Shown here: in pieces, positions 27,205-64,000 of the stretch
How the letters are laid out: each line of letters starts with the position of its first letter
Numbering within the stretch: the stretch's first letter is position 1
Assembly: GCA_973895155.1 (NCBI GenBank)
Contig: OZ316893.1
Coordinates: 5,842,171 to 5,906,170 of the forward strand
Reading direction: 5' to 3'
Source of the DNA: Marsupella aquatica
Lineage: Eukaryota > Plantae > Marchantiophyta
Length of the DNA stretch: 64,000 bases
Position numbers and translations under genes: made by a program
The notes under the pieces: generated by a model
What the model was told of the DNA's origin: nothing
Seen by the model: the letters and a program-made list of their open reading frames with translations, nothing else
The model's database searches: none

Positions 27205-27528
27205 TGTGGGGAGAAATCAGATCAGGAAAAACACTCCAAACATACACGTGTTCAATAGTTACGTGGTTCGCCTCAAGGTTGGCTACGTCCACGGGAAGAC
27301 CAAGCTTTATTAGCGGTTATATGTCTACTCAAGCATCACCATAGCTCTCATCTCTTCAAGCTTTCATCTCTTGTTATATCACTGTGTTCTTTCTTGAGAA
27401 CTCTCTGTTGTGTTCTCACACCACATAGAAGTTGAAGAGATAAGGACCAATCTCTTCAACTAGGGTTTACTCTAACCCTAGTTAACATACTAACCATAGT
27501 TCAACCCAAGACTGAGTTAACCTTTACA
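27205..27528 (-). repeat. 3' LTR of copia element 1
   Basis: TGTGGGGAGA...CCTTTACA. About 10 differences from the 5' LTR by eye. PPT (AGGGGGAGTT on minus) is adjacent at 27529-27538. Confidence 0.95.
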
Positions 27529-28340
27529 AACTCCCCCTTGACTCACGTCTTGGGAGGGTTCATAACATTGTCTTTTCCTTACAAGTTCCTCCGTGGGAAG
27601 TTCAAGGCAGTAGGGCCAAAAGACCCTCCCCCTAATGCAAGGGTTAACTAGAACTAAGCCGTAGCCGATAAACCATCGGATGGAGTACTCATATAGAGAC
27701 ATTTTCTTGGTTAACTCTATATTTACAATATTTGTAAATAATTACAATGCCTTGAAAAACTATTGGAGTTTAATACTTTGGTAAAAACATCCGCTGGATT
27801 AAGCTTTCCATCAATCTTGACAAGCTCAAATTCATCATCCGATAATGCCTGTCGGATGAGATGATAGCGGACATCAATGTGCTTTACCCTGCCATCCATC
27901 ACCTGATTCTTGGCAGTGTAAATTGCACTTTGACTGTCACAATGAAGATATACACACTCTTGTGATAAACCCATCTCCGCGACAAGCTTTTTCAACCAAA
28001 TGGTCTCTGATGCTGCTTCTGCTGCTGCTACATACTCGGCATCCATAGTAGACTTTGCAACACACTTTTGGAGAGTAGACTTCCAACTAATGCATCCACC
28101 AGCAAGTGTAAATACATATCCAGTTGTTGATCTCCTCTTATCCAGATCATCTGCGTAGTCTGCATCCACATAACCTTGAAGCACTTTCATATTGTTTGAA
28201 CTTGCATCAAACAATAAACCCCTCTTAGTGGAACCTTTGATGTAGCGCAAAATCCATTTCACTGCTTCCCAATGAACTTTTCCTGGATTTTCCATGTATC
28301 TGCTTACCTTGCTAATGGCATAAGCTATGTCTGGTCGGGT

Positions 28341-28628
28341 CTCGGGGGGTTAACTAAGTGTATATTTTGGGGTATCACATGTGATCCTAGCCTAATATAA
28401 ATAGACCTATTTTATAAATAAAATATTCTAAGAATATTCTCCATTTTCAATATTAATAACCCTATTTTATTTTATAAAAAGTATATATTAGAGAATATTC
28501 TATAAACATGAGTTTATAATACCTTCTTTTGCCTCCTACGCTTTTTAAAAATTTAGTTAATTTCTATCAAAAATACCTATTTTGGATCGCACGTGGTTCC
28601 TAAGATTTTTGATAGTCAACCCCCCGAG
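28341..28628. mobile_element. 288-bp MITE with 8-bp TSD (hAT-like TSD length) inserted in copia RT
   Basis: TIR CTCGGGGGGTTAACTA / TAGTCAACCCCCCGAG; TSD GGTCGGGT at 28333-28340 and 28629-28636. Removal restores MVCTRPDIAY. Confidence 0.93.
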
Positions 28629-30294
28629 GGTCGGGTGCATACCATGAGATACATTAAACTACCCACAGCACAGTTTTCATAAGGAACTTTGGATATCAAA
28701 ATTTTTTCTGTCGCATCTGATGGACAAAATGCTGCAAAAATATTGAAATGCCTTGCCAAAGGAACACTCACAACCTTAGCATCTGCCATGTTGAATTTTG
28801 AGAGTACCTTCTCTGCATATCTTTTGCGTCAGCCAAAGTTTGGCTTTGTTAACATCCCTGACAATCTCCATGCCTAGGATCCTCTTGGCTGTGCCCAAAT
28901 CCTTCATCTTAAACTCAGAACTGAGTTGGGCCTTAAGCTAATCAACTTCGCCCCTATCCTCTGCTGCAATGAGCATGTCATCCACATAAAGTACAAGGAT
29001 GACAAGCTTAAAACTTGTGTTGTTCACATGCCTGATGTAAACACATGGATCGTACACGCTTTGCACAAATCCAAGCGATTTCAAAAATTCATCAAAATGC
29101 TTGTTCAATCCACTGCCTTGGGCTCTGCTTTAATCCATACAAGGATTTTAGCAACCTGCATACCAAATTTTACTTGCCATTTTGCACAAAACCCTCTGGT
29201 TGCCTCATGTAAATCACCTCATCCAACGATCCATATAAGAATGTCGTGACAACATCCATTTGATCTAAAACCAAATCAAATAAAACTTCAAGAGCACATA
29301 GCAAACGTATTGTTGAATACTTTGCTACGGGTGAAAAAACCTCATTGTAGTCTATACCTTTCTGTTGAGTAAAACCCTTGGCTACCAACCGAGCCTTATA
29401 TAAATATCTTCTCAGCATCCTCTGTGGGTCCATCTTTCTTTCTATACACCCACTTGCTGTCAATAGCCTGCTTGTCACTAGGTAGACTTGTGAGTTCCCA
29501 AGTCTTGTTATCATGAAGGGATTTAGTTTCCATGCGCATCGCCACCTGCCACTGTTGCTTCTCCATAGAAGCTAGGACCTCTCGAAATGAGGATGGATCT
29601 CCATCTTCTATCACCAATGCATCAATAGATTCTTCATCCAAATCCACATGATCAGAAGGAAGCCAAGTTCCATACCTTTCCCAAGCTTGATGTTTACGAG
29701 TTCCTTTTTGCACTGAAGACTGTGGCTGATCTGATTGTAGTGTGCTTTGCCTTACAGTATTGTCAACATATTCTTCATTTGACACATCCTCTCCTCTTAA
29801 ATCCTCTAGAGGAGGAAATTGCACTTTGTTAGTAGTAGGGAATTGATCTATCTCCCCCTCCTTCAATGATTTGTTTTCATTGAAGGATACATCCCGACTA
29901 ACAAGTGACTTGCAATCAACTGGATCCCACAATCGATATCCACATAGCTCAAAGGAGGTTTTGTAAGTAATTGCCCGACTAGGAGAGAGATTTACTAGAT
30001 AAGCAACTATGTTGACAGCTTCCGCCCAAAAGATTTGTGGCAATTTAGAGTGGCTCAACATGCTTCTTGCTCGCTCCAACAATGTGCGGTTGAGTTGCTC
30101 AGCAACACCATTTTGCTCAGGAGTGTACACAGTTGTGAGATGGTGAGTAATTCCTTTATTTGCACAATACGTGTTGAACTCGCCAGAGGTGTATTCACCA
30201 CCATTATCTGATCGTAGATATCTCACATTCTTTGCAGTTTGTGTCTCAACTTGAGCTACCCATTGTTTGAAGATGGAAAACACTTCAAACTTAT

Positions 30295-30932
30295 GGCCTC
30301 ATTCACAATTGGAGGACCCAAAAGGAACGTCACACTCAAAAGTGACCATAGTTTATTATGCTTTAGGATATCATTTTTAGGGTGTAATGAGATGATATAG
30401 AAAATTTGATGTACTATACTTAATAAACATCCTATATGTTGGTAACATTCATTAAACTATCTAGCATTTGAGACTTTGAAGCTCTCCTTATATGTCCTTC
30501 AAAGATTGATAAAAGGACTTGTCATGCAACGGGTCACATCATTTCAGGACTCAAAAAGACTCTAAAAAATGCATTTTAGACAATAATATTTTACCAAAGC
30601 ATGCATACTAATAGCATAATCTTATATTTCAAGACTTAAATAGTGACACACACTAAACCTTTATGTACAGGACAAAAATAATCAGTAATTTTGGCTTATT
30701 TAGGGCCATCAATAACAGGATCCCTTAAAACAGTTGAAAACTTGATGTATCTACATGGTGAGGTAGGTTACACCATGTAAAATAGTATTGTGAAAAAATT
30801 AGACTTAAATGTCTTGAGATAAAATCATGATGAATATTTTTTCATGTTATGAAAATTATTTTTCACTAAAAAAACATGTTTTTGAGTCCTGAAAGTGGTT
30901 CTTGCGAGGTACACCCAATTGTGAATGAGGCC
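30295..30932. mobile_element. 638-bp MITE inserted in copia integrase
   Basis: Perfect 18-bp TIR GGCCTCATTCACAATTGG / CCAATTGTGAATGAGGCC; TSD TTAT at 30291-30294 and 30933-30936. Removal restores YFIAHKFEVF. Confidence 0.93.
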
Positions 30933-33718
30933 TTATGGGCAATGAAATAAATCCAAACAAACCTTGAGTAATCATCGATAAACGATATATAGTATTGTTT
31001 ACCTGAATGTGAGGAAATTAGAGCAGGACCCCACACATCGGAATGAATATACTCAAGTACAACTTTAGAATGATGAATGACAGTCGGAAATGGAGTTCTT
31101 ATTTTCTTGCCGACAATGCAATGATCACAAAAACTCAACTTGCATGCTTGCAATCCTGGTAGGAGATGTCGCTTGTGTAGGATTTCCAAACTTTTTTCAC
31201 TCATGTGACCAAGCCGAGCATGCCATAAATTGATTTTCTCCTCCTAAAATGTGACCAAATTGACTTCGGCAAGAAGGGTGGTGCCTTCCAAGACATAGAT
31301 GTTTCTTTTCCTCTTGCCAATAAGAACTTCATTTGATCCATGCGTGACTGTTAATACCCCATCAATTGCACTCCATTGATAACCCTTCGCATCCAAGTAG
31401 CCAAGAGAAATCAAATTTTTACACATTTATGGAATGTGTCTAACATTTGATAGAGTACAGTACTTACCACCTAGTAGTTGAATCTTGGATCCAATCCCTA
31501 AAACTTTACAAGAATGATTATTTCCCATCAAAACAGATCCGTTGATAGGAGTGTAGGATGAGAAAAGTTCACGCATATAACACATGTGATACGAGCAAGC
31601 AGAATCCAAGATCCATTGACAATCCTCAACTTGGGAAGTGGTACACAATGCAAATCCTTCACTATCCTCTTCTCAAACAACTACTTGGGCTGAAGAACCA
31701 ACAACTTCCTTGAATGTGTTTTTGACGCGACAATCCTTCTTCATGTGGCCCACTTTGTCACACTTCCAACACTTTATCTCACGAGTAGACCTGGATGGTG
31801 ATTTGGATCGAGATCTAGGTCTGGATCTAAACCTCCTCCTACCAAAGGATCGATCGTGGAACCTTCCTCGCTCCATGGGAAGTGGGTTAAACCGTTTATT
31901 TTCATGAGATGACTCCCTTGTTTTGCCTCTTTCTACCAATAGTGCTGTTGATGATGAGGTTGAGGTAGGATGAGCTGAAGAAACCAGCTTAGACTGCATA
32001 TCATCGGTCAATAGGGCACTCACTACATCATTGTAGGATATAGTTGTCTTATCACGGAATAGAAGAACTCAAGACAAAGATTGGTATGAAGGTGGTAGTG
32101 AGCTCACGAGTTGTAAGGCTTTCTTTTCTTCGCTCAAATGCTCCCCCAAATTCTCTAGGTCAACCATAAGATCATTGAACTGATCGATATGATCTTGAAT
32201 CTTGACTCCATCAGCCATTTTGAATTGCATGAGCTTCAGGCTTGCATACATTCGGTTTGACATCTCCTTCTTATAGTACTTGTTGCGCAATGCTTGAAAC
32301 AAGTCCGTCACCGTTTGTGTTGCTTTTTCCTCGAACTGCTTTTTCACATTGTTTTTCAAGTACATGCCAACAATACTTATCGCTTGATCCTGGAGATCAT
32401 GCCAATCATCATCTTCCATCTCCTTGGGTTGAGATCTTATTACCTTGCCTAGGCCCATCGCCCTAAGTGCATCCCTCACGTTACGTTCCCACATTGTATA
32501 GTCCATCCGACCATCAAATTTTTCCACCTCAAAACTTTGACCTCCAATCCTAGTAGTCGACATCGCTGGAATGCCAAATGTAGTGTGGAGTCGCCTTCCG
32601 ACAAGAAATAAATGTCGAATGCTCAGATGTGGGGTGTGAAAATAAGGCCAAAAATGAAAGTTGGTGAATTTTGAAACTGATCACTCCTATGTGTAGCCCA
32701 CAAGGTAACGCTCCAAATTTTGAAAACGGTTTGTCAAATGGACTCTCGAGTGCCAAGAATTTTTACTCCAACCGGAGGGGGGTTAAAGATGAAATAATTA
32801 CCCCTCGAGGGAATCTCTTATGCCAAAGATTCCACTAGTATACTTTTTCAGAATCAAACACACCAATACTTGCCTAGCTTCCTCAAGTACGCCTCTCCAA
32901 AAGTTGAAGTTGATCCGATTTTATTTGCCGCTCAGAATCTTTGACCTTCGGTAAAAATTTAAGCCTCTGGAAAATAATCTTTTCGGGAAATTTCGTCCAC
33001 CCTTGTACAGCCCATGTGGGGGACTTCACAGGGGGCACTTCCCCCTGCCCGAGCCCTGTCGAGCCTAAAAGGCCTCCTCAAAGTTTTCGACCTCCTCGCA
33101 CGTCCGCGGAAGTCGCGACTACTCACGGCAGAAAGTACCCCTCGGCGGATTCACTCAAATTCCCGTCTCAGTGTTTGACGAAATCCAATTTTGATTTCAG
33201 ATTCAGAAACTAGACTTCGAGGGCATCAAGATTGATATAAAGAACTCGCAAAACGGTGGAGTAATGAGGGAGAAACAATTCGGTGAAAGTGACTGATATT
33301 AAGTTATTCCCCATAGCCAAAATTTTGAGCTCAAAAAATGAGAATTGAAATTAAGATTGGTTCTCAACCGTTTAACGGAATTCAACGATGTTGATATCAA
33401 AACGTCTAGAAAGACAAGGCGCTCAAGCGTATCTCAGTTTCAAGTCCCAATAGAATAATCAAAAAGACTGATCTGAGAAATTGACCTTATCTCTTGCCCG
33501 ATAACGTAAATTGAAAACCGTCACTTACAATTGTTTCCGTTTCTGACCTCAAGCTTTCACTGCTTCACTGAAATGAGCCCCTAGTTGTGTGCTCCACACT
33601 TGTGAGAAGATTGAGTCTGATCTTCTTTCAATAGCTCCGCTCCGAAGAGGAAATCATCCGCTGTTCGCTTTGCTTGAAGCAAGTTCTATGAAGTTCCTAA
33701 TCGACTGAAAAAATCTGA

Positions 33719-33730
33719 GCTCTGATACCA
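33719..33730 (-). promoter_or_regulatory. Primer-binding site (tRNA-iMet 3' end)
   Basis: GCTCTGATACCA on + reads TGGTATCAGAGC on minus, 2 nt from the 5' LTR. Confidence 0.95.
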
Positions 33731-33732
33731 AT

Positions 33733-34056
33733 TGTGGGGAGAAATCAGATCAGGAAAAACACTCCAAACATACACGTGCTCAATAGTTACGTGGTTCACT
33801 TCAAGGTTGGCTTCATCCACGGGAAGACCAAGCTTTATTAGCGGTTATATGTCTACTCAAGCATCACCATAGCTCTCATCTCTTCAAGCTTTCATCTCTT
33901 GTTATATCACTGTGTTCTCTCTTGAGAACTCTCTTGTGTGTTCTCACACCACATAGAAGTTGAAGAGATAAGGACCAATCTCTTCAACTAGGGTTTACTC
34001 TAACCCTAGTTAACATATTAACCATAGTTCAACCCAAGACTGAGTTAACCTCTACA
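33733..34056 (-). repeat. 5' LTR of copia element 1
   Basis: TGTGGGGAGA...CCTCTACA, followed by TSD GAGAG. Confidence 0.95.
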
Positions 34057-35868
34057 GAGAGAAAGTGCTCCCAATCATGCAGTGGGAGTCCTGCCCACAT
34101 CAATTCTACTTTCTAAGTCATGCAGCCGGCTACTGCCCCTACAATCTTACTTTTTATAAGGCAAGATTTTCATTCCTTATAATGGGCTTATATCAAATTG
34201 ACCATGTGAAGTTTCATTACACTAGACTAAACATACTCCTGCACCTCTCATCTCAGACAAGGAATCCATGCACACTTGTTTTCAATTGATATAAAAAACA
34301 GGATGGAAAAATTTGACCAACCCAAATTATATGACTTTTTCTGAATCAGGGTCTAAAGCCAAACTAGCCAGCTTTTTGGATTTGTTTTTCCAAAATTTAG
34401 AATTCTATTAATAAAATTTACTACTAGTTTAAGATTTGTTTCTATCCTACATGGAAAAGAAGAAAATCAAAATTAGATATGACTGAGAAAATTGTAGAAG
34501 AAGAAAACCTATCTTTTTTTTCAATTTGATGTTTTATTATACCCACCCTTAGTCCACGTAAGAATGTAGACGGTGTTTGGAGGGGGGATCACATTAATTC
34601 CATTCATTTTTTTAGGAGGATGAGAAGGGGACAACCCTGTATCAGCCAGAACATGCTCCCTGCGCACTACATGCCTGCTTCCTAGGGTGCATACTTGTCT
34701 ATTATACAAGAGTTGCATACAGGGGGCAATAATAATATTTTGTGTGCTTTTTCTATGCATTGAGCTCTACATTTAGAACCAATAAAATATCATGTATTTT
34801 ATCACACCCGATGTGCCATTTTAGTGGAACTTAGACCCAGCACTTCCTACCAGTATTAGTCGCAATGTCAGCCTATCCAAAATGACAATTGTTGCCCATA
34901 ATTGTAATTGTGAAGGCGAAAACAACAACAAGGTTGTAATGACAATTTTGGAATGCACTATCATTTTACTGCAGGAATTAAAGCATGTATAATTGCTTTA
35001 TTAACAGGGAAGCTTAGTACATACGTCCCCATATTATGTTCAACCCGTTATTTGCACCATGAAACACAATTGGAGAATGTGAGATCCTGAAGCAAGGCTC
35101 TTTATAAACTTAAGGGCATAGTCACTTGACTTGGTGTCAGTCTACTACTACTACTACTACTAAACACTGACCTCAAGATGTCGACCATCAATTCACTATT
35201 TTCTGAGCTTTTCAAAATTTGCCAACTTTTTGGTAGCCCAAATTCTGTAGATTTCTGATTTTTATTCTGTGTAAAACAAAACTTGAAATCAGATCCAAAA
35301 GATGGAGAAGAATATACAAGGAATCAAATACAAAATTAGAGAGTGCTATATGGTCAATCCACCTGTCAGTGTTTCGTCTTACTAAGAAATTTTGTCACAT
35401 ATTTTTAATTTTTGTATCACTTGTATAATCCATATTTTTGATTACTCCCTAGTATTTTTATCTTCCTATACTAGAACTCTCTCCTCCCCACTACATTTAG
35501 TTTTCAGTGCAAATTATACTTTCAAACCCATTAGCAGATTTTTTTGGAATTTCTTGCAATTCTAGTGCATGAGAGAGAATTAGTACTTTAACTTTTATTT
35601 ACCAAACTTTATGGGTTTTGTTGTCATTACTTAGGGCGGGGTATCTTTTAAACCTTATGTGTGTTAAGGTAAGAATGAGAATCAGTACTGTATAATCTGG
35701 TAATGGTTGTACATATAGTGGTGCCGGTCCGGTGACTGGCTGTAAATGGTAACATTACACCGGTTAAATTATAGTCCTTTAGTCTTAGAAGCGTCAGCCA
35801 GAAGTTAATCCAGGGTATTTAGGGAGCAGCACGCAAGGACCGGTAGCAGTTCATTGCATCCTGTTAGA

Positions 35869-36477
35869 ATGGTGGAAAGGCTAGAATTAGGAGAGGCGAC
35901 GATCATCGCGATTAGTGGCCGGATAGGAGTAGAGTTCTGTTATGAAGGTTGCGATGGCTTTCTAGCAAATGGCAAGGTCTGTGCCTTAGGCACAAGGGCT
36001 CGACAGAAAAGACAAGAGGGGACCGACATGGGAACCCCTATTAGCCGAAATCGAGTAGGGCATAGGTGTAAACCGCTAGGCGAAGGAGTGCTTATGTTTA
36101 TGTTCACCATTCGGGTGAAAGAAGGGAGTTGTCGTGTCTGGGATGAGGCCGGGCAACAATTGTTTGGAATGAAGGGCGAAGAGTTTCGTCAGCAATTCAC
36201 GACCAGCGGGGCCATTGAGGGATTCTGCCAAAATGTCATGCGGAAGAAGTGGAATCTGGTACTAAGGCGGGATAACAACCGCGATCAACGGATTGCATGG
36301 CGATTAATCACCGCCGGTCAAGTAATCGTCGCCAACAAAGCGACTACCGCTAAGGAAGGGGACGATAACCTAAATGTCGTTTCACACTTAGCAGAATTGG
36401 CGATCGAAAGTCCGGAAGCTTCCAGTTCAGGCGCCATCAAAGAAGAGAATCAAAGGCGTCGTTGCACAGTTCAGTAA
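35869..36477 (+). CDS. RPA1 C-terminal (Rep_fac-A_C)-like OB-fold protein encoded inside the TG...CA element
   Basis: Intact 202-aa ORF from ATG 35869. ATIIAI..FCYEGC..KVC..RC..FMFTIRV..GSCRVWDEAGQQLFGMKGEEF parallels RPA1 DBD-C (ATI..I..YxAC..KK..Y.l...D.tG..w...FdE.ae.llG..a.el). Confidence 0.65.
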   Translation: MVERLELGEATIIAISGRIGVEFCYEGCDGFLANGKVCALGTRARQKRQEGTDMGTPISRNRVGHRCKPLGEGVLMFMFTIRVKEGSCRVWDEAGQQLFGMKGEEFRQQFTTSGAIEGFCQNVMRKKWNLVLRRDNNRDQRIAWRLITAGQVIVANKATTAKEGDDNLNVVSHLAELAIESPEASSSGAIKEENQRRRCTVQ

Positions 36478-37342
36478 CCACAAGAATCTTCTTGACATGT
36501 AAACACGGTTCTTGGCTCGCTCATCGTTCTTGGCAGGAGACAGTTAGAGTTTCTTTGCAGATTAGCGCAGGAGACCACGGCTGAAGGGCGAACCGTCCAA
36601 CTGAAGTCGGCGCGCCCCGGAAAGTAGTTAGAAACCTCAGCAAAGACGGACGCGAGGCATAGGTATTTAGAGGCTGTGGAGCGCTAGGCGCTCTGTCACT
36701 TTTTGCTAGGAGCTTGGTTGAGAGGTAGAGCCGGACTCACCTCAAGATTACCAGCGTTTTGTATTAATGTCCCTACTCATTTTGAGTAGTTTTCGATTAT
36801 AAAGAGATGTGTATGAATGCAATAGAGTGCAGAGGAACTTTGTTACCTTGTGCTTGAGCGGTGAGTAAGAGTCCAGAGTCAACGTTGGAAGAATGTTGTG
36901 AATCAAGTCAGAAGAAGCAGTAACTTTGAAAGTCATTCGAAGAAGGAGAGGCATTCGTGATTAATACTGAGAGTCGAGGAGTGCGGTTATGGGAGTTCGC
37001 ACGAAGTACTCATTAGGAACATGTGTTAAGTCGATTAATCGTAAATCGCTGGGATGAATGGAAATCGTCTCACTACGAGTGAGGACCTTACGGTTTAGCA
37101 CGTTAAGGTAGCGATTTAACAGACAACTCGTGGGAAGCAAGGTCTGGTTGGAGATTGTGTGTATCCAGGATGTGACCTTGGTCGTCGTACACCTTCAACA
37201 TACAGGGTCAACCGTTAAATTGGGGTTCCTACTACGAATACCTCTATTTAAATTGCTTGATTTAGCCAAAGATAGATCGATTGCCAGGAAGGCCGATTGA
37301 GGGACAGCAGGACCTAACCCGGTCACTGCTACTATAACAACC

Positions 37343-37663
37343 ATGAATGTAGACAGTAAGGTGGACAAGCCTTGCTCCTTGATTAAGTTAAGACCACTGG
37401 AATTGTGGATCTGTTCCATCGGTTCCCACCTGATTACCCGAGCGTTACGCCAGGAGAGTATTCCCATCTGTTTAATTACTTACCGCTATTGGTGTGGGTT
37501 TATCGAGATCATCTACAGGGAGGGTCTGGTGTTGACTGAAGCAGTCGTGCCCAAGAGGTGGAAGGAAGAGTTAGACATTATAGAGCACTTGGTAGGATTC
37601 ACTTACGGGGACTATATAGAGGAAGAGGGGAGTACCCCGCTAGAAGGTCGGTTGATCGTTTAA
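37343..37663 (+). CDS. Unknown conserved protein (ORF2 of the TG...CA element; may be the C-terminal part of a longer decayed ORF)
   Basis: 106-aa ORF. Its last ~65 codons align without gaps to 63794-63991 (minus), with the same stop and mostly synonymous changes. Confidence 0.7.
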   Translation: MNVDSKVDKPCSLIKLRPLELWICSIGSHLITRALRQESIPICLITYRYWCGFIEIIYREGLVLTEAVVPKRWKEELDIIEHLVGFTYGDYIEEEGSTPLEGRLIV

Positions 37664-38081
37664 GCGGGAGATACTGCAAAGAAGGCAGTTAGACGTCCGT
37701 TAATCGCAAGTCAAACTGGGCGTTTAACACTGGCTGGTCTGGTCGTCCGGTCACCAGGTAGAGTCTAACACTCCCCTTTGGATATATAGTGACAATTATA
37801 TAGACAACATAGACTATACCTATTATATCATGTTCATAGGAAATACATGATATAAGTACAAGCGAGATAGACTACCTCGTTAAAAAACCTTTATCAACTC
37901 TAGCTTAGTAAAAACTCTACCAGTGTAGCAGAGAAAAATATGAGTGCTAAAGGAAAAAGAGTGCAGCCTAACAGTCCTCGTCGTAATAAATGTCAATATT
38001 AAATAAAGTTAGATGTTATGGTAAATCTAGCTTTAATATCTGTCTCAATAGTAGGTCGTCAGCATCATGTCATCAACAGCA

Positions 38082-39596
38082 TCAATCATCATGTGGAGTA
38101 GCAGCTTCCACGGTCATCATGCGTCGCACGCTCCGCAGTCCAATCGCCTGGCAGTGTCGGTGATGAACTAATGGTGGTAGTGATTTGGTGAAGAGATCTG
38201 CACAGTTGTCTGCACTTGAAATCTGCAAAATGTTGATCTCTTTTCCATGTAACTCGTGGGTGTAGAAAAACTTTGGAGCTATATGCTTCAGGCGATCGCC
38301 TTTGATGAATCCTTTTGTGATCTGCTGTATACATGCTGCGTTATCCTCAAAAATGTTAGTAGGCTTCGTTAGTGGTGGTAGGCCGCATTTGGTGTTGATA
38401 TGGTTTATAAAGGATCGTAACCAAATGGCTTCACGACTAGCCTCATGTAGAGCTAAGATTTCTGAGTGATTCGATGAGGTTGCTGTTAGGGTCTGTTTCA
38501 CGCTTTTCCAAGAAAAAGCGGTACCCCCTATGGTAAAAATGTATCCAATTTGGGATTTTGCGGTATCAGTGTCGGAGAGATATCCGGCATCCGCATATCC
38601 TATGAGCTTGTGGTTTGCACCGAATGGGTAAAATAACCCGGTATCAATGGTTCCATGTAGATATCTAAATACGTGCTTAACTCCGTTCTAGTGTCTGGTT
38701 GTGGGAGTTGCAGTATGTCTAGCTAGTAAGTTAACTGCAAATGCAATGTCTGGTCGTGTCTGATTTGCTAGATACATTAATGCTCCTATCGTAGAAAGGT
38801 ATGGGGTTTCTGGTCCTAATAGTGGTTCATGCTCTTCGTGCTTGCAAAAAACATCAGTATTGTTTCTAATGAACGTACAACCATTGGTGACGTCAATGGG
38901 TGTGCTAGGTTCATATTGAACTATTTTAGGATCTTTTCAGTTTGTGTGGTTTGATGGAGCATCATGCCAGTAGGTAAGATCTCCAGTTGTAATCCTAAGC
39001 AAAAGTTTGTATGTCCAAGGTCTTTCATCTCAAATGTTGATTTAAGACTAGTAATAGTATCTTCTGTAATTTGGGGTGTCATCTAAGTCATCAACATAGA
39101 TAGAAATGATGACATATTCGTCATCCACATGTTTAATAAATAAACATGGTGTAATGGCATCATGGGAAAAACCCATGGCAATCATTTCATCAGTAAATCT
39201 TTGATACCATACTCTGCCACTTTGTTTCAGGCCATATAATGCCTTCAACACGCGGATAGCTAGTCCACGGCGAGTATTCCGTACGGTTGACACAACGGTG
39301 TCGTTATTATGAGTTACGTGTGTAGATGACACATGAGGTGTAACTTGATATAATTGTTTTATAATCTTATGTAAATATGGGATATGCGATTTAGCGCCTT
39401 GCTCGGTGATATTGTTCCAACTCGGGAGGTGATTGCATGTATAGACAAGTGTCTAAAGTTCCATATAGATATGCGGTTGCAACATCCAGTTATCGCATTT
39501 GTAGTTTATGGAAAATGGCAAATCCGATAAGGTATCGGAATGTTGTGCTATCCATAACCGGTGAGTAAGTTTCATCGTAATGAATTCTCGGTTGTT
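38082..39596 (-). pseudogene. Bianca pol: RT (C-terminal part) and RNase H
   Basis: YDETYSPVMD, ALYGLKQSGRVWY, IYVDDL, YLANQTRPDIAFAVNLLAR, GYADAGYLSD, FEDNAAC. Several stops and frameshifts. Confidence 0.93.
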
Positions 39597-42500
39597 AACA
39601 AGAAGCCTTAAAGGGTGAGTAACAAGCCCAAACTCTAAGCACTCTCGTAAAAAAATTGCAGAAACAAAGAAAATGGCAAAAAAGTGGCCAAAAATACTAC
39701 CTGTTTATTGACAAAATTATAAAACAAATTGAAAGTATTAAAATGACACACTTTTTTCACCATCTCCTAATTACAAAATGATCTCAACTTACTTTTGATA
39801 AAATTACTACCTATAATTTTACTATGCCATTTTAGCAATTTTTACCAAAACATGATTTGTATTTTTAACAAACAATCAAATTACCTCCATAATTCATTAG
39901 ACTTGGGAAAAATTCAAATTCATAAAATATGATCTCTTTTTGACTCTCCAACATGCGCCCCTTCACTCTTTGAGGAAGACTTTTCAATGGAAGATGATAT
40001 CTCCATAAATTCACCACCTACGCTTCCAAATGTACCCGTTCTGATCCAAATCAGATCACTCAATGGCTCCTCTTTTACTCTCAACCTGGCTCTCAACATG
40101 CCTGAGTTTGATTTGTTAGGCAACATCTGAATTTCACAAACATATTGACCCAACTGGGCTCCCCCAACCTCTTCTTGGGGACCTCTTCCAAATTCTTATT
40201 CTTCCCCTTCAAGTTAATTTCTTGATATTGATTGGCTTCCAATCTCAGCCAAATGATGCAAGTGTGCCCGGGTGACCTTCTTGTGATGATCCTTTCCTTG
40301 CCGGAATTATTTGCAGCCTCAGTAGGTCTTCTTGTGTCCCCGCTTGTGTCAGCGCTCTTACACCTTCCTGGAATTTGAGAGATGTCAGATGACCATATTC
40401 ACTCTCTCCCCTTGGTGCTTGTTGCAACGCTTGACCTTTCCAAAATGCACAACAATCTGGTTTTGAGACAGGACTTAGTGTTTTTAGAAACTTGTTACAA
40501 TCGGTCTTCATGAATTCATGAGTCCGCTTTCTCAACTGTCCACTATCTTGAAGACCCTTGAGTCGGACACCCAAATTAACACTAGTCTCAACCACATGGG
40601 ATAGAACTTAACGCCCGGGGAGGCTAGTGCTCTCAAATGAGTGAGAAGAACTTAATGTAGACAAAACACACAAAAGAGCAAAAACCCTTTAACTTGAAAC
40701 AAATGAAATAACATGTTTTCATGAATAGAGGACGCCTATTTGAACTTAATTGGTCCTTTCTCTAATTTAAATGAATAAGAAATGCTTAAATCATTTTTCA
40801 ATAATTAAGCCAATCATTTCATGACATAGATGAACAAGTCAAGGAAAAAGTTGAAAAAATTATATTTCCAAAAGTTTTTTATGACACAACACTTTATTAA
40901 TTAGTCTTCTTGGCTACTAGGTGGTATCTTAGTCCTTTGACTTTTTGGCTTGTTGGGCAACTTAGGGCTTCTTTGGGCCTTTTCCCTTCCCCATACCTCC
41001 CTTTACTAGATTGCTCAATTATTAATCTCACAATATTGTTTGGACTACCCAATCCAGTTTACTTGGAGAAATAAATCATTTTTAGGTTTGCATTCCCAAG
41101 TTTCATGAGGATAAACATTGGCATTAAAAACCCATATGTTTTTGCCCACCAGTAAAAACCCATATGTTTTTACCCACCAAGATACGTACTTCCATGACTC
41201 ATGATTGGAGAGTTTGTCTTGTTGACCTACTGTTTCCATATGCTTTTTGGAATATTGGCATTTGGAGCACTTTTTGCTTTTATTTCACCATATTTTTTGC
41301 ATTTCTTGAGATTGAGTGGTTTGTCTTTATCCCCTTTTCTTTCACTTTTGAAGTCTTTCTTTTGGCTATTCTGGAGATTCTCTCCCTAAGATACCTTATT
41401 CTCTTTCATGAATTCATGAAGGGGCTACCACCTGGGAAACTGAGAAACCAAAAGCTTCATGAATTCATGAAGCCCAAAACTGGTTGTGACAAAATACAAA
41501 GGGCAAAGACTGTGTTGCAAGCTCAATGACCTACAAAGGGCTAGGGTAGCCAATTGGCTATGGCAAAGGAGGCTGCGGCCTGGAGAGGGCTATTGCCCCT
41601 CACTTAAGCTCAAGTCGCATCAAGGTGCTGTCATCAGCTGCCGATTGAGGTCAGGCCTAATTTATGGTCTGGGAACGACTGCTAATCTCTGCTGTCGCCT
41701 TCAAAATCCTGAAGCTGAAATTTTGAATTCCTGGTTTGATGTTGATGCTTTGATTGCTGGATTTCACCTGAGTGTTGGACTTTGATTTCTCAGATTTGGT
41801 TATTGAATGAGCTTCTACTGTGATTGACTGCTACTTGAATTAGCTGTGGTAGACTCTGATTCCAATTAGGGGAGATAGCCACAAAGGATCAGGGATAATT
41901 TGTGAAAAATTGAGCTTGAGAGCTAGATCTCAATCGAGCAGACCTAAGGATTGAAGGGGGAGCGAGTGGAGGATGGGAGAGGGAGCAAGGGAGATTGGAA
42001 TGGGATTGATAAGGATTGGAAGGGGATTGGAAGGGGGGCCATTTAGGGATTGGAGGAGGGTGGACAATCGACCGTCAGGGGAACGATCAACCATCAGAGG
42101 GGGATGGAGCACCGGAGGAGGGCAGTCGAGCATCAAGGGGATGATCAAACATTGGAGGGGGAGCGGTAAAAGATCGGGGGGGAGGGTTTAGGATTGGGGA
42201 AGGGTTTCACTAATCAGGGACCAGGGGAGGGCCGATCGGGAATCAAGATTGATCCAGGGAGGATTAAGGGTTGACCAGGCCTGGTCTGGGTCAAAAATGA
42301 GTCCAAGGTGGGTGGATTGGGAGCAGAAGCAAAGAGAACTATCGAGCTTGGGGGAACTAACTGGAGGGAGCTAGGAGGATCAGGTAGCTTCTTTCAGGTG
42401 AGAACCCGGCTTCATGATTTCATGAAGCCAGGTGGCTGCCCAAATCAAACTCGATGTACATTTCAATATTGGTATGGATCAAGAGAGTGGGGAGGACGTG

Positions 42501-42935
42501 AAGCGCACCAGAGTAGAGGGTGCAACAGAAGATGTAACTATTGAGCTAGCTCGGATTGAAGCAAGGATCTTCTAGAAGTGGAGAGGAGGTTAGAGAAGCC
42601 TTAGATTAGTTGAGTTGCATTGTATTTAGAGATTTAGTGGACTTAGATGCACACCTACAATGGATAGTGGCATTCTACTTAAGATTTTGAGTTTGCACAA
42701 ACTCAGATCAAAGACCGTAAATTTTATGTTTGTAATTAAGTATGGATTTGTTATTTTTGGTAATTGTGAAAATGATGTTGAAAATATCCCAAGATTTTCA
42801 TTGAAAGAATTATAATAGCAAAGTTCACAAAACATGTTTCATTTTTATATGTTTTTTTAAAGCACTTTTGGAAAAATCATGAAAATCTTGAAAAAGGAAT
42901 TCGGGCCTTGGACTCATCCCTTAAGGCTCCATGTT
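39597..42935. mobile_element. 3.3-kb non-autonomous TIR element (AACA...TGTT ends, 4-bp TSD) inserted in Bianca RT
   Basis: Imperfect 33-bp TIR AACAAGAAGCCTTAAAGGGTGAGTAACAAGCCC vs revcomp AACATGGAGCCTTAAGGGATGAGTCCAAGGCCC; TSD TGTT at 39593-39596 and 42936-42939. Removal restores GKGFTQQPRIHYDETY. Confidence 0.9.
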
Positions 42936-45900
42936 TGTTGGGTAAATCCTTTCCCTATCAGACGTGCTTTGTAGCGTACAACTTTGCCTTTATCATTTCT
43001 TTTGCGGACGAATGTCCACTTGTAGCCAATGAGGTGTACGTCTTACGGTGTTGGCTCGACTGGGCCAAAAGTGTGTCTGCTTAGTAGGGAATCTAATTCT
43101 CCATTGATAGCTTTCTGCCATTCAGGCCAATCTGGTCTGTTTTGGCATTCTAAGATGGATATTGGTTCTGGTGTCTCGTCAGTGATATGTGTTGCCACCA
43201 TTAATGCAAAAGCATCCTCTATTGAAGTAGTATTTCTATCCCACATCGTACCGGTGTGTGCGTAGTGGATAGAAATCTCTTCATGAGTTGTGGATTCGGT
43301 ATGATCGACATTAGGTGAAGGTGGTATAGATGAACCACGCCTTCTTGGTTGTTTATCCTTTGATCCCAAGGGTCTACCACGTTTGGCACGAGGCTGGGAT
43401 GTATTTGCTGGCTCACTTGATAATTCGATGCGAGCAGATGCTCTCGCAGCTGGAATATGTGAGCGGCTAACTTGTGATGTATTGACGAAAGCGTCGGGAA
43501 GATCTTCCACAATCTTGTGGAGTTGCAAAATTCGTTGAACTTCTTTCTCCCCTTGATTGGTTCTAAGGTCTTGCCAAAATGGCGAGTATCTTTCCCACTC
43601 CAAAGGTGGTTGTGGGTGTTTAGGGGTTATTAATGATGGATAAACATGTTCATCGAAATAACAATCTAGGAATCTAGATTTAAAGATGTCGCCGGTTGTA
43701 GGCTCCATATATCGGATTATGGACGGAGAGTCGAATCCGATGTATATTCCCAACTGCCGTTGGGGTCCCATCTTGGTTCGTTTGGGTGGAGTAATGGGGA
43801 CCATTACTTGACATCCAAATGAACGAAGATGTGATAGGTCAGGTTTGATACCATTAGCGATTTGGTATGGGCTATAGGTATTAAAAGCCGATGGGCGATA
43901 TTGAATTAATGCATTAGCCTGTAATATGGCATGTCCCCATGCTGAGACGGGGAGTTTCGACTATATTAGTAGTGGGCGTGCAATGAGCTGAAGGCGTTTA
44001 ATGACAGCTTCAGCTAATCCATTCGGGAAATGCACGTGGGGTACAGGATATTGTACGTCTATGCCAAGTGATGTGCAAAAGTCATCAAATATTTCAGATG
44101 TGAATTCCCCTGCATTGTCCACCCTGAGTGTCTTAATGGGGTGATCTGGGAATTGTGCTTTCACGCGCAAGATTTGCGCCAAAATGCGAGGCATAACCAT
44201 GTTCCTCGTTGAAAGCAGGGTCACATTTGACCATTTAGTGGATGCATCGATTAATACCATAAAGTAACGGAAAGGTCCGCTTGGTGGGTTAATTGGCCTG
44301 CAAACATTTGCATGGATTATTTCCAAGAATTGGGGTATTTTAGTTGGCAATTTTGATGTCGTGGGCCTTGTTATTAGTTTACCACGTGAGCATGCAGTGC
44401 ATGGGGTGCTCGCTGGAATGTGGCGTGTATTGATTGGAATGCCTCTTGAGTTCTTAATGATTTTGGTTAGCATTGATTGGCCGGGGTGGCCGAGGCGTGC
44501 ATGCCAAAGCGCATGCAATTTGCTTGTGTTGGCATTGTTATGCAGGCATTCAATATGAGTTACATAAAACCCGCAGGGGTACGAGAAAAGGGTTTCTTTA
44601 ATGATTTTCCCCGTAGGGTATTTTCAATCAAGTGGATGACCTCTTGGTCTCTTGTATCGCCTATTTGGACGTGTAGTCCATTTGCTCGTATATCTCTAAA
44701 ACTGAGGAGATTACGAGTTGCGTTCGGGGCGAAAATGGCAGATTCTATGTGTATTTCGGTACCCTGTGGGAGTCTAATAGAAGCTGGGCCGAAGCCCTCT
44801 TCTATTTGGCTAGGACCATTGATAGTGGTCAGGGACTTACGTGAAGGTGTGATCTTATGGAAAAGGTGCCTATCCCGGAGGATAGTATGCGTGGTCGCAC
44901 TATCGATAATACATGTGCTTGGACTATTTAAATCTGGTGTAGTGGAGCTACTTGCCACTAAGTGTGCCTCGGGTTGGACAGGTAGGTCTGAAAAGTCTTG
45001 GAATGGGTCACTAGACTCCATAAACGCCCCGTGGGTTTCACGGGGTGGTGGCCTAGAGGTTTGTCCATCCTGGATGGGCCGTTGGTATAAATCTCTAAGG
45101 TGTTGCAGGATTCTACAGTTTCTCGCTAGGTGGTTTGTCATGCCACATTCATGGCATTTCGGTCGTTCCCGTTGTTGTCGGGATTGTGACCAATCATTTC
45201 TATGGTTGTTGTTATATGTTCTACCACCGCTGCGTCCTCCGCGTCCACCACGTCCACCACGTCCTCCTCGTCCTCCTCGTCCTCCATGTCCTTCTTGTCC
45301 ACCATGTCCTTCACGTCCTCTAAAGGTCCGCTGGGAGTTATATTGTGGACGTTGGTTATAGAAACTCCCCCTATTGTGGGTGTTTCTTTGGTTGCCATTT
45401 TTAGTGCGCTTAATGCCTTGCCTCGATGTGGAGGGTTCAGCATTTTCTATGTTATGGGTTTCATTCTGTTGTCCTGAGGGCAGTGTGCCCGCAGGTCGTT
45501 TTCTAGAGTTTACTAAAAGAAGTTCTTGGTTTCTTTCGGTGACTAGGAGGTGGGCTATGAGCTCGGAGTATTGCCCGAACTTCATGTTTCAATACTTTGT
45601 TGATAGCCACACATTTGATGAATGAAATGTCGACAGGGTCTTCTCTAGCAGATCCTTGTCTATGACCGGCTCGCCACATAGTGCGAGGGTTGATGTTATT
45701 CTAAAGAGTTCGCTATTGTAGGCTGAAATAGAGGTAAAGTCTTGGACTCGTAGGTTTAGCTAGTCTTGCCTGGCTTTAGGTAGTTCGACCAGTTTTTGGT
45801 GGTCGAATTGGGTTTGGAGCGCTGTCCATAGTTCCCGAGGGGTTGAAAGGTGCATGTATTGTCTCTGTAGGAATCTATGGATGTGGCGTCTCAGGAATAC

Positions 45901-45962
45901 TAAGGCCTTCAATTCATTGGCTTTAGTTAACGGGTCTGGTTGGGGTTCGCCAGCTAGTATAG
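42936..45962 (-). pseudogene. Bianca gag (C-terminal part), PR, IN and RT N-terminus
   Basis: KALVFLRRH, LEKTLSTFH, RGG-rich tract, [71 protein letters not shown]. Confidence 0.93.
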
Positions 45963-48273
45963 AACACGATTTCGGACTGAACGAGAACTATTTTCTCTAA
46001 ACAAGAAGTGTATTTTCATTTTCCGCCGAATCTCGCGAAATCGGCAGTTTTTTTCATCAAAAACACGTTTTTGGGAAAATAATGTAATTCGTATCGAAGT
46101 TCGGATTGAAACAGCAAATTTAATAATGATCAAAACCAATGAAATTCATGCTAACAAACATTCAAATTATCAAGGAACAATTAGATCCAAAAAACTTTCT
46201 CCTCAACCTCATATTCACGCTCTCCGAAGATATATGAAAGGTCTTATCTCTAAATCCATATCCATGTTTCAAGCCAAGTGCGATAACTGTATCGGACTCC
46301 GGATTTGAGCCATGAAAGCTCCGACCCAATCTCAGTTTTCTCAGTTTTTGGATATTTACCAAGAATATTTTACATTACAGTCGATAAGAATTACTGCACG
46401 GTTTGTCAAACTTACCTTGCAGTTACCTCCGCAATTGACCAGTTACCTCCGCAAGTGACCATAGTCAACATGCCATTCTTTCAACAGCAATACGCAGTCC
46501 GATAAAATTATCGCGAAAACTACGGGCGACAAAAATACTAGTCGACAATACTAAGATCCTTCGGTTTATCGGTTAAATTTCAAAATTCCTATCCATATGA
46601 AGAAAACTCTTTGCAATACCAACATCAGATAAATTTATCGCTTCAATTTCAAAATTGCAACTTCCATATGAAGGAACCACTTTTGCAATACCAACATCAG
46701 ATAAATTTATCGCTTCAATTTCAAATTGCAACTTCCATATGAAAGAACCACTTTTGCAATACCAACATCAGATAAATTTATCGCTTCAATTTCAAAACTA
46801 TATAATTTTGCCATGATGCATGTGTGAGAATGAAATTGGAAATCCAAGAAATATACCCTTTTCTGCTATTTTGTCGTTTAGGGTGACAGCCAATCAAAAG
46901 TGGACATGTGGGCCAACCCCTCAACAGACACTATAAAAGGGCCACCGCCGATAAGTTTTTGGTGTCATTATCGAGAGTAGAGTTTTGGGAGTTGTGTTCT
47001 TGGAGCAACATTCTGTCCGTTGAGCCTTTCGTTTTCCCTGATTGCGGGAGGAATGCAAAGCCCCATAGTCTTACAACAGAAGTGAGCCTGTTTGTGATAC
47101 TTGTTGTCAAGACGACGACAACAATAGTTACAAGAAAACTCCAAAGAATGTAAACACGCCGTTAACATCAACCTCGAATGAATTGGAACTCCTGCATCAT
47201 TCATTCCGTAGAATTCAATGCGGAGAGGATTCTGCCTATCTCCAGGATCAGTACCACCCATCCACAATGCTCCTATACCGATGGGGAGAAATTTGAGTTG
47301 CACGAGTCTCTTGTACAACCGGCGTGCACGTTTGACACAATTTTCAAGGAAGACAGCCATTTGTCACAATACCTGTTGTCCACGAAGTGCAATCGACCTT
47401 TCATTGTGCCTCCTAAACCCGGCAACACTGCGACATCAGAGATGAAGATGAGTCTCCAAACAAAACAAAGGAAAATGATTCTCACAGGAGGATGCGATAA
47501 GTTTATCGCACTCCACATTCGAATTGAAAATATGACTTCCTCAGACACCTAAGCCCTGAATTCAATCTTTCACAAAAATGATAACTCCGATAAATTTATC
47601 GGATTCTCAATTACTCCTCTTTCCATGAAAGGAATGAAGACTCCGATAAATTTATCGGAATGAAGGCAACACCTCTCTAAACACTGGATCAAATGATTGC
47701 AACAGAGGAATGCAGAATGCAATAAATTTATCGCAGTCCGCTCGGATCTGGACATTTTACACTAAATGACTAGTTAGTCTTACATGGAGAACTTGAACAG
47801 GAATGGCTGTTCCGATAAATTTATCGGGTTTTCGGTAGAAAGAGTCGAATCGCTTGGGAGGAAGTTAAGACTCGATGGGAGTTTGGTATTCGCTCTCAGT
47901 CAGGAGATATTTGCTCTGGCGAAAGCAAATGTTTTATGGGCAGCCTGCTCCTCTTTATATAGGAGACGCTCTAAACCATGGTTAATTTCCCCTTAACCAT
48001 GGTTAAGTTTCCCCTTTACCTGGGTTAGTGCATGGTCGTTCCTGGATTACGTGGTTCGGACCAAGTTACTCGCAGTTCGGACTTTTTCACTGACGGAATG
48101 TAAAACCCGATGCACATATCGCTCCCTGCATTCCCGCGGCGATGCAATGGAGGAAAGTGGCGTTTCGGAGAGTTTTTGCCAGTTTTATCGGTCATTGCAT
48201 TGCCTTAGAAAAAAAATGGGATCGGGCTAAACGAGAACTCCGACACACTTCTCGGTCGGTCCGAAATCGTGTT
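45963..48273. mobile_element. 2.3-kb non-autonomous TIR element (AACA...TGTT ends, 4-bp TSD) inserted in Bianca gag
   Basis: TIR AACACGATTTCGGACTGAACGAGAA vs revcomp AACACGATTTCGGACCGACCGAGAA; TSD ATAG at 45959-45962 and 48274-48277. Removal restores MAQPILAGEPQPDPLTKANELKALVFL. Confidence 0.93.
46575..46797. repeat. ~71-72-bp tandem repeat (~3 units) inside the TIR element
   Basis: TTTGCAATACCAACATCAGATAAATTTATCGCTTCAATTTCAAA recurs at ~46610, ~46682 and ~46753. Confidence 0.9.
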
Positions 48274-48407
48274 ATAGGTTGGGCCATCCCTATGGCTGGG
48301 AGTAGGGTTAGCGAGGTTAGGTTTTCTTTGAGGTTCATGGACCATTCTAGGTAGTTGCCGCCATCGATTTCTAGGGCTGGAAAGGTTAGTTTTTTGAGGT
48401 TGGTCAT
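48274..48407 (-). pseudogene. Bianca gag N-terminus
   Basis: MTNLKKLTFPALEIDGGNYLEW matches the Bianca-type gag start (MsNL.KLeF.ALdi.G.NYL.W). Confidence 0.85.
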
Positions 48408-50086
48408 CTTTAAGGTCCTGGCGTGCAACGGTGGTGTGCGTGTTTATATAATATATATATAGTCAAAAGACAATGCACATTTGCCGCATGCACTGGTGGA
48501 GAAAGGGTTGAGGAAAGCAATCTAAGTCATTGGCAAGTAAAGCAAGAATGATTGGGTTTTTGCAGAATTTAGGTTTTGCACTTAGTAAATTGGTTTTCTT
48601 TGTAAATGTATAACTGCAGGGTTTCCTTTGTATTTGTTATTTCCTTTGTTAAACTGTGCAGTTATCTGGTTGCGCACTTAGGTTTGCAGTTATGGGTGAT
48701 TATTTAGTCGTGCCCTGGTTAAGTGCACATGGTGCTTTGTTAAGTTAATTTCTCATTGTTATGGTGTGCAATAATGGAGGGTTTAGCGGTTAAGTGCGGT
48801 TATGGAGCGTGCACTTAGCGGGTTTGGCTCGGTTCGACGTTCTCTCGATGTTTTGAGCTTTGAGGTTGCGCTATCTCCCTCATTTGCCGCTTCGCTCGAC
48901 CTTCTGATCTCGTTTGCAGTCGTGGCCTTCCGTCTATGGTCCTTATGGTTGCTCTCTATTGCTCATTTCGCCCTCTCGCTGTTTTCGGTGTCTCGCTACT
49001 ATCGGCCCTTCTTTCAAGTGCCCTTTTAATTTTTGTTTCCCATGGAAGTTTAGAATTCGGACGCGCCTCGTGGTTTTGTGAAACACCTTAAATGCGACGC
49101 ATCAGGCTGACCGATCTTCTCAAACGTTTCTCTCTCTCTTTCATTCACTGCTGTTCTCGAGGGTGTGGCCTCTCGCTGCCTTATCGATCTTTTGTATCCC
49201 TGTTCGGCAATCTATCTCCTCATATGAATAACTCGCTCGCGCTCGATCTCTCGTCAAGAAGGCCTCAACTGAAATTGCATCAATTTCTGTTTCGGTCTCT
49301 CGCTGCTGGTGGTCCTTATCTTTCCATTTCAATTCTCCTCCCTCGTAAACTGTCGAATGATTTCTTAATGTTTTCTCTCCCCTCCTTCCTTTGATTTGTG
49401 CAGCGGAGGGATTCTGCTGTCCTTATCAATGCTTCTCTGAAATGGTGCCGAAGTTTTTCTGCTTCAGCAATTGAACCTCCTCTGGGGCTGAGCTAGCGCG
49501 AGAGCAGAGAAGTTCACCTTCTGTTAGCAGTCATGCGTTCCAGGGCTCTCTATCTTCTCCTCTTGACTTCTCGATCCTCGTTTGTCTAATTTAATTCATT
49601 CTCACCTTGCTCCTTCGTAAGCTTTTTGTCCTCCGCCTATGGGCAACGATCCAGTTCTCACCTCGTTTCACCTCGTTTCTCGCCTTCTGGTTCTGCTTCT
49701 TCTAATTCACGTTATTATTGCTGGGGCGCTCTCGTTTTTCCTTCCTTCCTTCAGTAAGAAAAACTATCGCGGGTCTTATCTGCGCTGCGCTCCTAGTCCG
49801 ATTTTGCCTCGACCTTCAACCTTCAATCGATCGCTCCAATCTCCTCTGATCTCTGTAGGCTTTTCAAAGTTTCTTCGCTTCTTTCCGATCTCTTTTCTTC
49901 TCTCTCGATTCTCCTCCAATGAGTCCGAATCGGTGTCTCTTTGTTTTTCTGCCCTCGACTCTCTGATCTTGGATCCAATGTCTTTGTGCTCCTTAGATGT
50001 TAAAGTCGTCCTCTCAATCCCCATTCAAAAAAAAATTCAATCTTCCCTGGTCTTCTCCTTTCTATCTCGCTCCGCTGGCTGAGGCT

Positions 50087-50100
50087 TCGTGCTGATAACG
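50087..50100 (-). promoter_or_regulatory. Primer-binding site complementary to a half tRNA-Ile (anticodon arm)
   Basis: + strand TCGTGCTGATAACG equals the tRNA-Ile(AAU) anticodon arm TCGTGCTAATAACG with G at the wobble position. It abuts the 5' LTR. Confidence 0.85.
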
Positions 50101-50225
50101 TGTTAAGGTAAGAATGAGAATCAGTACTGTATAATCTGGTAATGGTTGTACATATAGTGGTGCCGGTCCGGTGACTGGCTGGTCTGGGCTGGTCTGGTCG
50201 TCCGGTCACTAGGTAGAGTCTAACA
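50101..50225 (-). repeat. 5' LTR (125 bp) of Bianca element
   Basis: TGTTAAGG...GTCTAACA, followed by TSD ATGTG. Confidence 0.95.
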
Positions 50226-61018: not shown

Positions 61019-61200
61019 ATGGCAAAGTCCGATGTTAGGAGAATGGGAAAGTCCGATGCTGGGAGTATGGGAAAGTCCGATGCTAGAAGAATGGGAAAGT
61101 CCGATGCTGGAAGAATGGGAAAGTCCGATGCTGGGAGTATGGGAAAGTCCGATGCTAGAAGAATGGGAAAGTCCGATGCTGGGAGTATGGGAAAGTCTGG
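61019..61200 (+). repeat. 24-bp tandem array (~7.5 units) in the CACTA left arm
   Basis: Units of ATGGGAAAGTCCGATGCT(G/A)G(G/A)AG(T/A). Confidence 0.95.
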
Positions 61201-62046: not shown

Positions 62047-62178
62047 CGGACTTTCCCATTCTCCTAGCATCGGACTTTCCCATTCTCTCACCATCGGACT
62101 TTCCCATTCTCCTAGCATCGGACTTTCCAATTCTCCCACCATCGGACTTTCCCATTCTCCCACCATCGGACTTTCCGA
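62047..62178 (-). repeat. 24-bp tandem array (~5.5 units), inverted relative to 61019-61200
   Basis: Units of TCGGACTTTCCCATTCTCCTAGCA / TCGGACTTTCCCATTCTCCCACCA. Confidence 0.95.
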
Positions 62179-63727: not shown

Positions 63728-64000
63728 TATTAAACGCCTACTTTGACCTTGCGATTAATGGCCGTTTAACTACCTTCTCCTCAGTAATCTCGTTTAAACG
63801 ATTAACCGACCTTCGAGAGGCGGCACTCCGTCTATCTCGACACAGTCCCCGTAAGTGAATCCGACCAAGTGCTCTTGAATGTCGAGTTCCGTCTTCCACT
63901 TCTTAGGCACTTCAGCCTCGGCCAACACTAACCCCTCTCTATACACAATCTCAATGAACCCACACCACTCGCGGTAAGTGATCAAGCAAATCAGAACGTT
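63728..64000 (-). mobile_element. Terminal part of a second, diverged copy of the TG...CA ORF-bearing element (runs off the window)
   Basis: Its reverse complement aligns with ~37460-37729, including the terminus (...GGCGTTTAATA vs ...GGCGTTTAACA). Confidence 0.85.
63794..64000 (-). CDS. Homolog of ORF2 (37343-37663), 5' end outside the window
   Basis: ICLITYREWCGFIEIVYREGLVLAEAEVPKKWKTELDIQEHLVGFTYGDCVEIDGVPPLEGRLIV*. Confidence 0.7.
   Translation of the reverse strand, partial: NVLICLITYREWCGFIEIVYREGLVLAEAEVPKKWKTELDIQEHLVGFTYGDCVEIDGVPPLEGRLIV

Follow-up and report, generated by a model that had tools for sequence, protein, structure and literature searches.

Inside a 1,989-bp insertion that splits an LTR of a Copia retrotransposon, we identified a short open reading frame, ORF C, which on its pattern of substitutions is a protein-coding frame under purifying selection. 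The explanation that we favor, at a probability of about 70%, is that ORF C is a selected gene within a solo LTR, likely of Tat/Athila-type Ty3/gypsy origin, and likely encodes a small accessory protein expressed from an internal promoter of its own. According to the preliminary description of this DNA, the end of an LTR-like unit encodes a real protein that is under selection and belongs to no recognised family. The omega values, the homologues, and the family contigs agree with that proposal, and the position can be refined: the stop codon of ORF C lies 66 nt short of the right end of the insertion, and the frame is wholly inside the 1,989-bp likely solo LTR. The features discussed below lie within the window, that is, the whole stretch of 64,000 nucleotides that was analysed.

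35662..50225, − strand: host Ty1/copia element, with target-site duplication ATGTG and Pfam domains; LTRs 35662-37770 (interrupted) and 50101-50225; gag to RNase H at 45588-38082
35736..35740, no strand: left target-site duplication CTGGC, 5 bp
35741..37729, + strand: the insertion, likely the solo LTR of a non-chromovirus (Tat/Athila-type) Ty3/gypsy element, delimited by TG...CA ends, the target-site duplication, and the ends of family contigs
35816..35821, + strand: TATA-like word TATTTA, a putative promoter word 53 nt 5′ of the ORF A start, no intervening ATG
35869..36477, + strand: ORF A, 202 aa from the first Met, 222 codons stop-free from 35809, Cys-rich
36640..36709, + strand: 70-bp block, identical in the near-identical and the diverged subfamilies, with a TATA-like word at 36664; likely the main LTR promoter and the U3/R border
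37058..37300, + strand: ORF B, 80 codons, in the same frame as ORF C, with a weak start context; a stop at 37109 breaks the window copy only
37245..37250, + strand: TATA-like word TATTTA, predicted internal promoter, 98 nt 5′ of the ORF C start, the intervening leader being ATG-free
37343..37663, + strand: ORF C, 106 aa, under purifying selection, with a strong start context (A at −3) and homologues P0001-P0003
37664..37729, + strand: 66-nt tail that follows the ORF C stop and closes the LTR; the second copy retains it, with small indels
37730..37734, no strand: right target-site duplication CTGGC, 5 bp
63728..64000, − strand: second, diverged copy, comprising the 3′ end of another LTR of this type, in which the final 68 codons of ORF C are present; it is cut by the window edge and ends in TA, not CA

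The evidence for selection comes from the comparison of ORF C with the second copy. Positions 37466-37663 (+) align without gaps to 63794-63991 (−) over 65 codons and a common TAA stop. Of these 66 codons, 32 are identical (the stop counted in), 21 differ synonymously, and 13 carry a replacement; the recount returned the numbers given earlier (about 21 synonymous and about 13 amino-acid changes), and the common stop with small indels right behind it is also as first described. The preliminary description had further held that a real gene should show dN/dS significantly below 1 and, across many aligned copies, a 3-nt periodicity of substitutions; the one pair in the window shows both features. 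By codon position 1/2/3, the 48 base differences are distributed 11/7/30 (chi-square p 8e-5). The Nei-Gojobori method gave a dN of 0.148 and a dS of 1.53, near saturation, for an omega of 0.10, and the Goldman-Yang pairwise estimates were 0.106 (F1x4) and 0.069 (F3x4), with a 95% interval of 0.02 to 0.20 on a grid. Likelihood ratio tests against an omega of 1 gave 33.7 (F1x4) and 37.4 (F3x4), p about 1e-9, from a single pair, 65 codons long, whose synonymous sites are saturated. When 27 transitions and 21 transversions were placed at random, 21 synonymous codons were reached in 0 of 5000 runs. The case for ORF C as a gene is made by this substitution pattern and by the homologues, not by the length of the frame: an open frame of 120 codons is unremarkable here, with 368 of 1000 shuffles reaching such a length.

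Such a periodicity might also be an artefact of methylation-driven mutation, of an antisense gene, or of RNA structure. Indeed, the antisense mirror frame has a low omega (0.165), the folding z-score is −1.8, and the window copy shows CG/CHG decay: it differs from the family contigs at 29 sites, and 24 of these changes are of the methyl-C loss type, 21 of the 24 in a CG or CHG context against a background of 41%. This copy of the unit is thus decaying and probably silenced. However, CG/CHG-weighted nulls (four weightings) attained the observed synonymous count in 0 of 3000 runs each, and transversions alone are biased toward the third position as well (3/5/13). The mirror frame contains 6 and 4 stops in the two copies, so the + frame is the selected one, and ORF C has homologues at the protein level. 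As far as one pair allows, the artefact reading is refuted, and we regard it as hardly credible.

The limits of the frame were less clear at the outset, as it had been described as open through isolated stops back to about 37060 and perhaps longer in its ancestral form. The stops are there, at 37298, 37109, and 37055 in the frame of ORF C, and they differ in kind. The stop at 37109 is private to the window copy, being absent from the contigs of two public runs, X1 and X2. The stop at 37298 is shared, since the near-identical family contigs of both runs cover it and list no difference there. This combination argues for two tandem frames, B and C, rather than one long frame. For the present family, the homologue P0001 (75% identity), which is called from the same Met as ORF C, and the TATA-like word and ATG-free leader that lie between the two frames likewise lend no support to a longer ORF. 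In a weak search, 0 of 363 candidates were longer homologues of ORF C, and an older form in which B and C were fused is still conceivable. The combination of a TATA-like word, an ATG-free leader, and an A at −3 precedes both ORF A and ORF C, an arrangement seen in 0.24% of 5000 shuffles in a test that was chosen post hoc.

With B and C in one frame, just 5′ of the primer-binding site (PBS) discussed below and downstream of the likely main promoter, it might be thought that they are upstream ORFs, or a single read-through protein, of the genomic RNA leader that tune gag translation or packaging in cis. We find this quite improbable, as eight ATGs separate the word at 36664 from ORF B, the G behind the stop at 37298 makes a poor context for read-through, and residues of ORF C are conserved down to 40% identity, which suggests a folded product.

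This conservation emerged from a profile search of 1.84 billion representatives, which returned four matches: P0001 (75%), P0002 (45%), P0003 (40%), and P0004. The last, a moth Tudor protein with 11 repeated stretches, was dropped as a repeat-inflated match. The other three are singletons from short contigs with no names attached. Over the five proteins of the ORF C family, 13 columns are invariant, with the motif C-x-x-T-Y-x-x-W-C-G-F-I at the center. Pfam, NCBIfam, PHROGs, and PDB sequence searches with the family yielded only sub-threshold single-member matches, DUF7433 (E 0.008, with P0002) and DUF4503 (E 0.08, with P0003), and an Atlas search with P0001 gave a best score of 0.76, which is noise level. 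No related locus was found in metagenome or viral contigs or in phages (best E 0.2 and 4 in the latter), and an Rfam search was blank. The AlphaFold model of ORF C has a pLDDT of 37; its best Z among 48,161 chains was 3.5, in a VANC fold comparison made with this low-confidence model. Likewise, Foldseek and VIA-align gave no match with the low-confidence models of ORFs A and C (pLDDT 35 and 37), which is no sign of a new fold. A dsRNA-binding domain was considered for ORF C and rejected: 0 of 5 members beat their shuffles against a dsrm profile built from 19 of 25 domains, all bacterial (the 6 without the signature were dropped, some likely mis-cut), the hhalign probability was 0.3%, and Pfam was blank. 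An AP2 comparison gave only three weak bacterial matches. The searches run thus matched none of ORFs A, B, and C to a family, fold, or function.

The unit that contains ORF C has the features of a solo LTR, namely TG...CA ends and a 5-bp target-site duplication around a single unit, and no terminal direct or inverted repeats were found within its 1,989 bp. Five bp is the commonest duplication length of plant LTR elements in the accessible part of one survey (PMC6317226). From these features, together with the fixed ends of the family contigs and the PBS-like word described below, we consider the unit a likely solo LTR that carries ORF C in sense. Self-comparison places the halves of the disrupted host LTR at about 35661-35742 and 37732-37770, split by the insertion, and its intact twin at about 50100-50225. 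Of 115 aligned letters, only 1 distinguishes the two host LTRs, apart from a 10-bp duplication, so that the insertion is young. Contig joints that span the insertion in X1 and X2 do not represent empty sites, as they match the other Copia LTR.

The surroundings hold several other repeats. In the host Copia, 4.5 kb of sequence (45600-50100) separate the 5′ LTR from gag and include purine-skewed DNA and, at 46565-46797, a tandem repeat with units of roughly 70 bp. The PBS of this Copia resembles the half-tRNA type of Bianca elements. A second Copia element lies at 27205-34056, with 324-bp LTRs at 96.9% identity, and a broken LINE reverse-transcriptase frame at 17607-18830 (Pfam RVT_1, E 2e-29). 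At 60900-62250, two inverted arrays of a 24-bp repeat, about 850 bp apart, are like the subterminal repeats of non-autonomous DNA transposons.

The unit is not confined to the window. Five public runs, from three studies and under three organism labels, carry it or part of it, and one of the five may come from the same source as the window. Contigs of X1 and X2 cover it whole at 98-99%, one beginning exactly at 35741 and one ending exactly at 37729. Contig depth on the unit against its left flank is 565-690 versus 32 in X1 and 144-175 versus 18 in X2. Although contig depth is not a copy number, these ratios suggest that the repeat is present in some ten to twenty copies. Other contigs are diverged and match along the whole unit, at 35875-36081 (81%), 36409-36480, 36640-36709, 37105-37162, and the end of ORF C; a loose end in X2 beyond 37615 resembles the second window copy. 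These diverged contigs and the loose end like the second copy point to two subfamilies with a common architecture.

The 70-bp block, which lies in the gap 3′ of ORF A, forms a contig of its own of 70 letters in two runs; its depth is the sum of those around it, and loose ends adjoin it left and right. The block is identical although synonymous sites elsewhere are near saturation, as expected from strong cis constraint or from recent recombination in the R region. The TATA-like word that it holds at 36664 also gives a near-match when the opposite strand is read.

ORF A is separated from ORF B by 580 bp, and its open stretch of 222 codons is reached in 2 of 1000 shuffles. The diverged subfamily aligns to it over 35875-36081, with 39 differences in 207 positions. 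None of 200 candidates was a homologue, and Pfam, NCBIfam, and PDB sequence searches with ORF A were blank. Its AlphaFold model has a pLDDT of 35, and Foldseek on a model of such low confidence is uninformative. Judged by eye, ORF A may resemble the C-terminal zinc-ribbon OB fold of RPA70, a single-strand-binding domain. This presumed likeness, together with the resemblance of tandem short ORFs with their own TATA-like words to a viral cassette, could suggest that the ORFs stem from a gene cluster captured from a host or virus, that the selection is older than the capture, and that they are now passengers. However, the 70-bp block, the tail, and the end of the LTR are common to both subfamilies, so that the synonymous divergence must have arisen with the ORF already in the LTR, unless it was captured twice. 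As no donor was found in viral contigs, phages, or the 1.84 billion representatives either, we judge a captured cluster to be very improbable.

The type and orientation of the element were read from its continuations. Three different ones are found beyond 37729 in the contigs, one of which, in a single contig of X2 with 19 loose letters, is a T run followed by TGGCGACCA... and supplies a PBS-like word after the right end. This word presumably fits tRNA Arg. Among 72 public matches (37 + 35) to the 18-letter PBS word, 69 continue otherwise and 3 continue with GGA. These three (L030, L031, and L034) are retrotransposon-like, and two of them have a gag frame directly behind the word. L030 encodes, in order, gag, an RNase H-like domain before the reverse transcriptase (RT), RT, RNase H, and integrase, which is the layout given for TatI and TatII in the accessible part of PMC6317226; L031 has a weak gag match, and L034 has an LTR-like end. 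A PBS word presumably of the non-Met type, as in non-chromoviruses, is common to the X2 contig of the unit and the Tat-layout L030. The word in the contig and its place before a Tat-type gag make the unit likely an LTR in + orientation, with ORFs A-C in sense. The word was not found in five supplementary files of PMC6317226, which may omit large tables. According to the accessible part of PMC13468544, liverwort Tat elements are without an additional RNase H (aRH).

The contig L034, plant-like and from a metagenome, has a further feature. At 555-1852 it shows TAACA, a T run, and the PBS word, and upstream of these three sense ORFs (131, 105, and 128 aa), the first two of which are paralogues (32% identity, E 8e-10), while the last stops some 35 nt short of what is likely the end of the LTR. 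The contig may represent an independent family that also carries genes within its LTR. Its ORFs have no Pfam or NCBIfam match, and homology to ORFs A-C is not demonstrable. A gap-free similarity over 48 residues between ORF B and L034:1043-1360 is not established, as its score of 36 was found in 67 of 3000 shuffles and bettered by unrelated frames, with an hhalign E of 0.095.

In the contigs, no gag-pol is linked to the 1,989-bp LTR, and the only left continuation is AT-rich, shows no polypurine tract, and may be a flank. Together with TG...CA ends and a 5-bp duplication, which suit any integrase substrate, these findings would also be expected if the unit belonged, as an LTR, to a LARD-like non-autonomous element, or if it were a small unit that a foreign integrase moves as a whole, with the ORFs as the sole cargo driving its spread. 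Such an origin is improbable in our view, since the PBS-like word beyond the right end in one contig implies that some copies are 5′ LTRs, and the unit is without internal terminal repeats.

For the solo LTR of a Tat/Athila-type element, the following course of events can be proposed. A full element would have integrated into the 3′ LTR of the young Copia, and its interior would have been lost by LTR-LTR recombination, leaving the solo LTR. Selection would have acted during the retrotransposition rounds of the families, like that on gag and pol. With the main LTR promoter predicted near 36664, we find it fairly probable that U3 contains ORF A and that a long U5 contains ORFs B and C; otherwise, all three would lie in a long U3. 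Since a longer leader holds many ATGs, ORF C would be translated from a short transcript that begins downstream of the TATA-like word at 37245. As a gene in the LTR, ORF C would be carried by both element ends and by every solo LTR, and its product would serve the family in trans. What it does can only be guessed at: tentatively, it may counter host silencing, and the next guess is a part in copying or packaging, as a small nucleic-acid-binding protein. It is also conceivable, if rather unlikely as a whole, that in a non-seed-plant Tat lineage the LTR has become a multi-gene cassette with its own promoters, a U5 gene by the PBS, and a captured ssDNA-binding OB fold in U3, and that solo LTRs express these genes in trans.

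From a biological perspective, plant LTRs are treated as non-coding, and a selected cassette in an LTR means that solo-LTR formation leaves some genes of the element behind. If the cassette reading is true, the usual removal of elements would leave active helper or anti-silencing genes. ORF C would provide a new small protein family for studies of the conflict between hosts and transposons, and repeat masking hides genes such as this one.

Finally, the unit can be set beside known systems. It is similar to the non-chromovirus OTA elements (Tat, Ogre, Retand, and Athila) in its large LTR, 5-bp target-site duplication, and PBS word of the non-Met tRNA type, and also in having accessory ORFs of no known family that are kept in most copies (accessible part of PMC6317226; PMC7264820). 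The published extra ORFs are located inside the element, either 5′ of gag or in the stretch from pol to the 3′ LTR, and outside the LTRs (same sources), as also in PMC10508981 and the accessible part of PMC13468544. The main survey, as far as its accessible part goes, counted only frames of at least 250 codons outside the polyprotein (PMC6317226), whereas the window unit has three short sense ORFs inside the LTR. ORFs A-C are also without the PMD, Transposase_28, or Athila ORF-1 domains of OTA elements. ORF C therefore shares with the published extra ORFs the gene-like retention across copies but not the interior position. Extra ORFs as such are common in non-chromovirus elements, and what sets the unit apart is their placement within the LTR; phrase matching in the open-access literature, a narrow method, gave no report of ORFs inside plant LTRs. 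In retroviruses, MMTV sag sits in U3 and HIV nef overlaps the 3′ LTR. ORF C is like sag and nef in being an accessory protein gene inside an LTR that is retained in solo LTRs. Unlike them, it belongs to a plant retrotransposon whose LTR carries several ORFs, at least one of them likely in U5 by the PBS.
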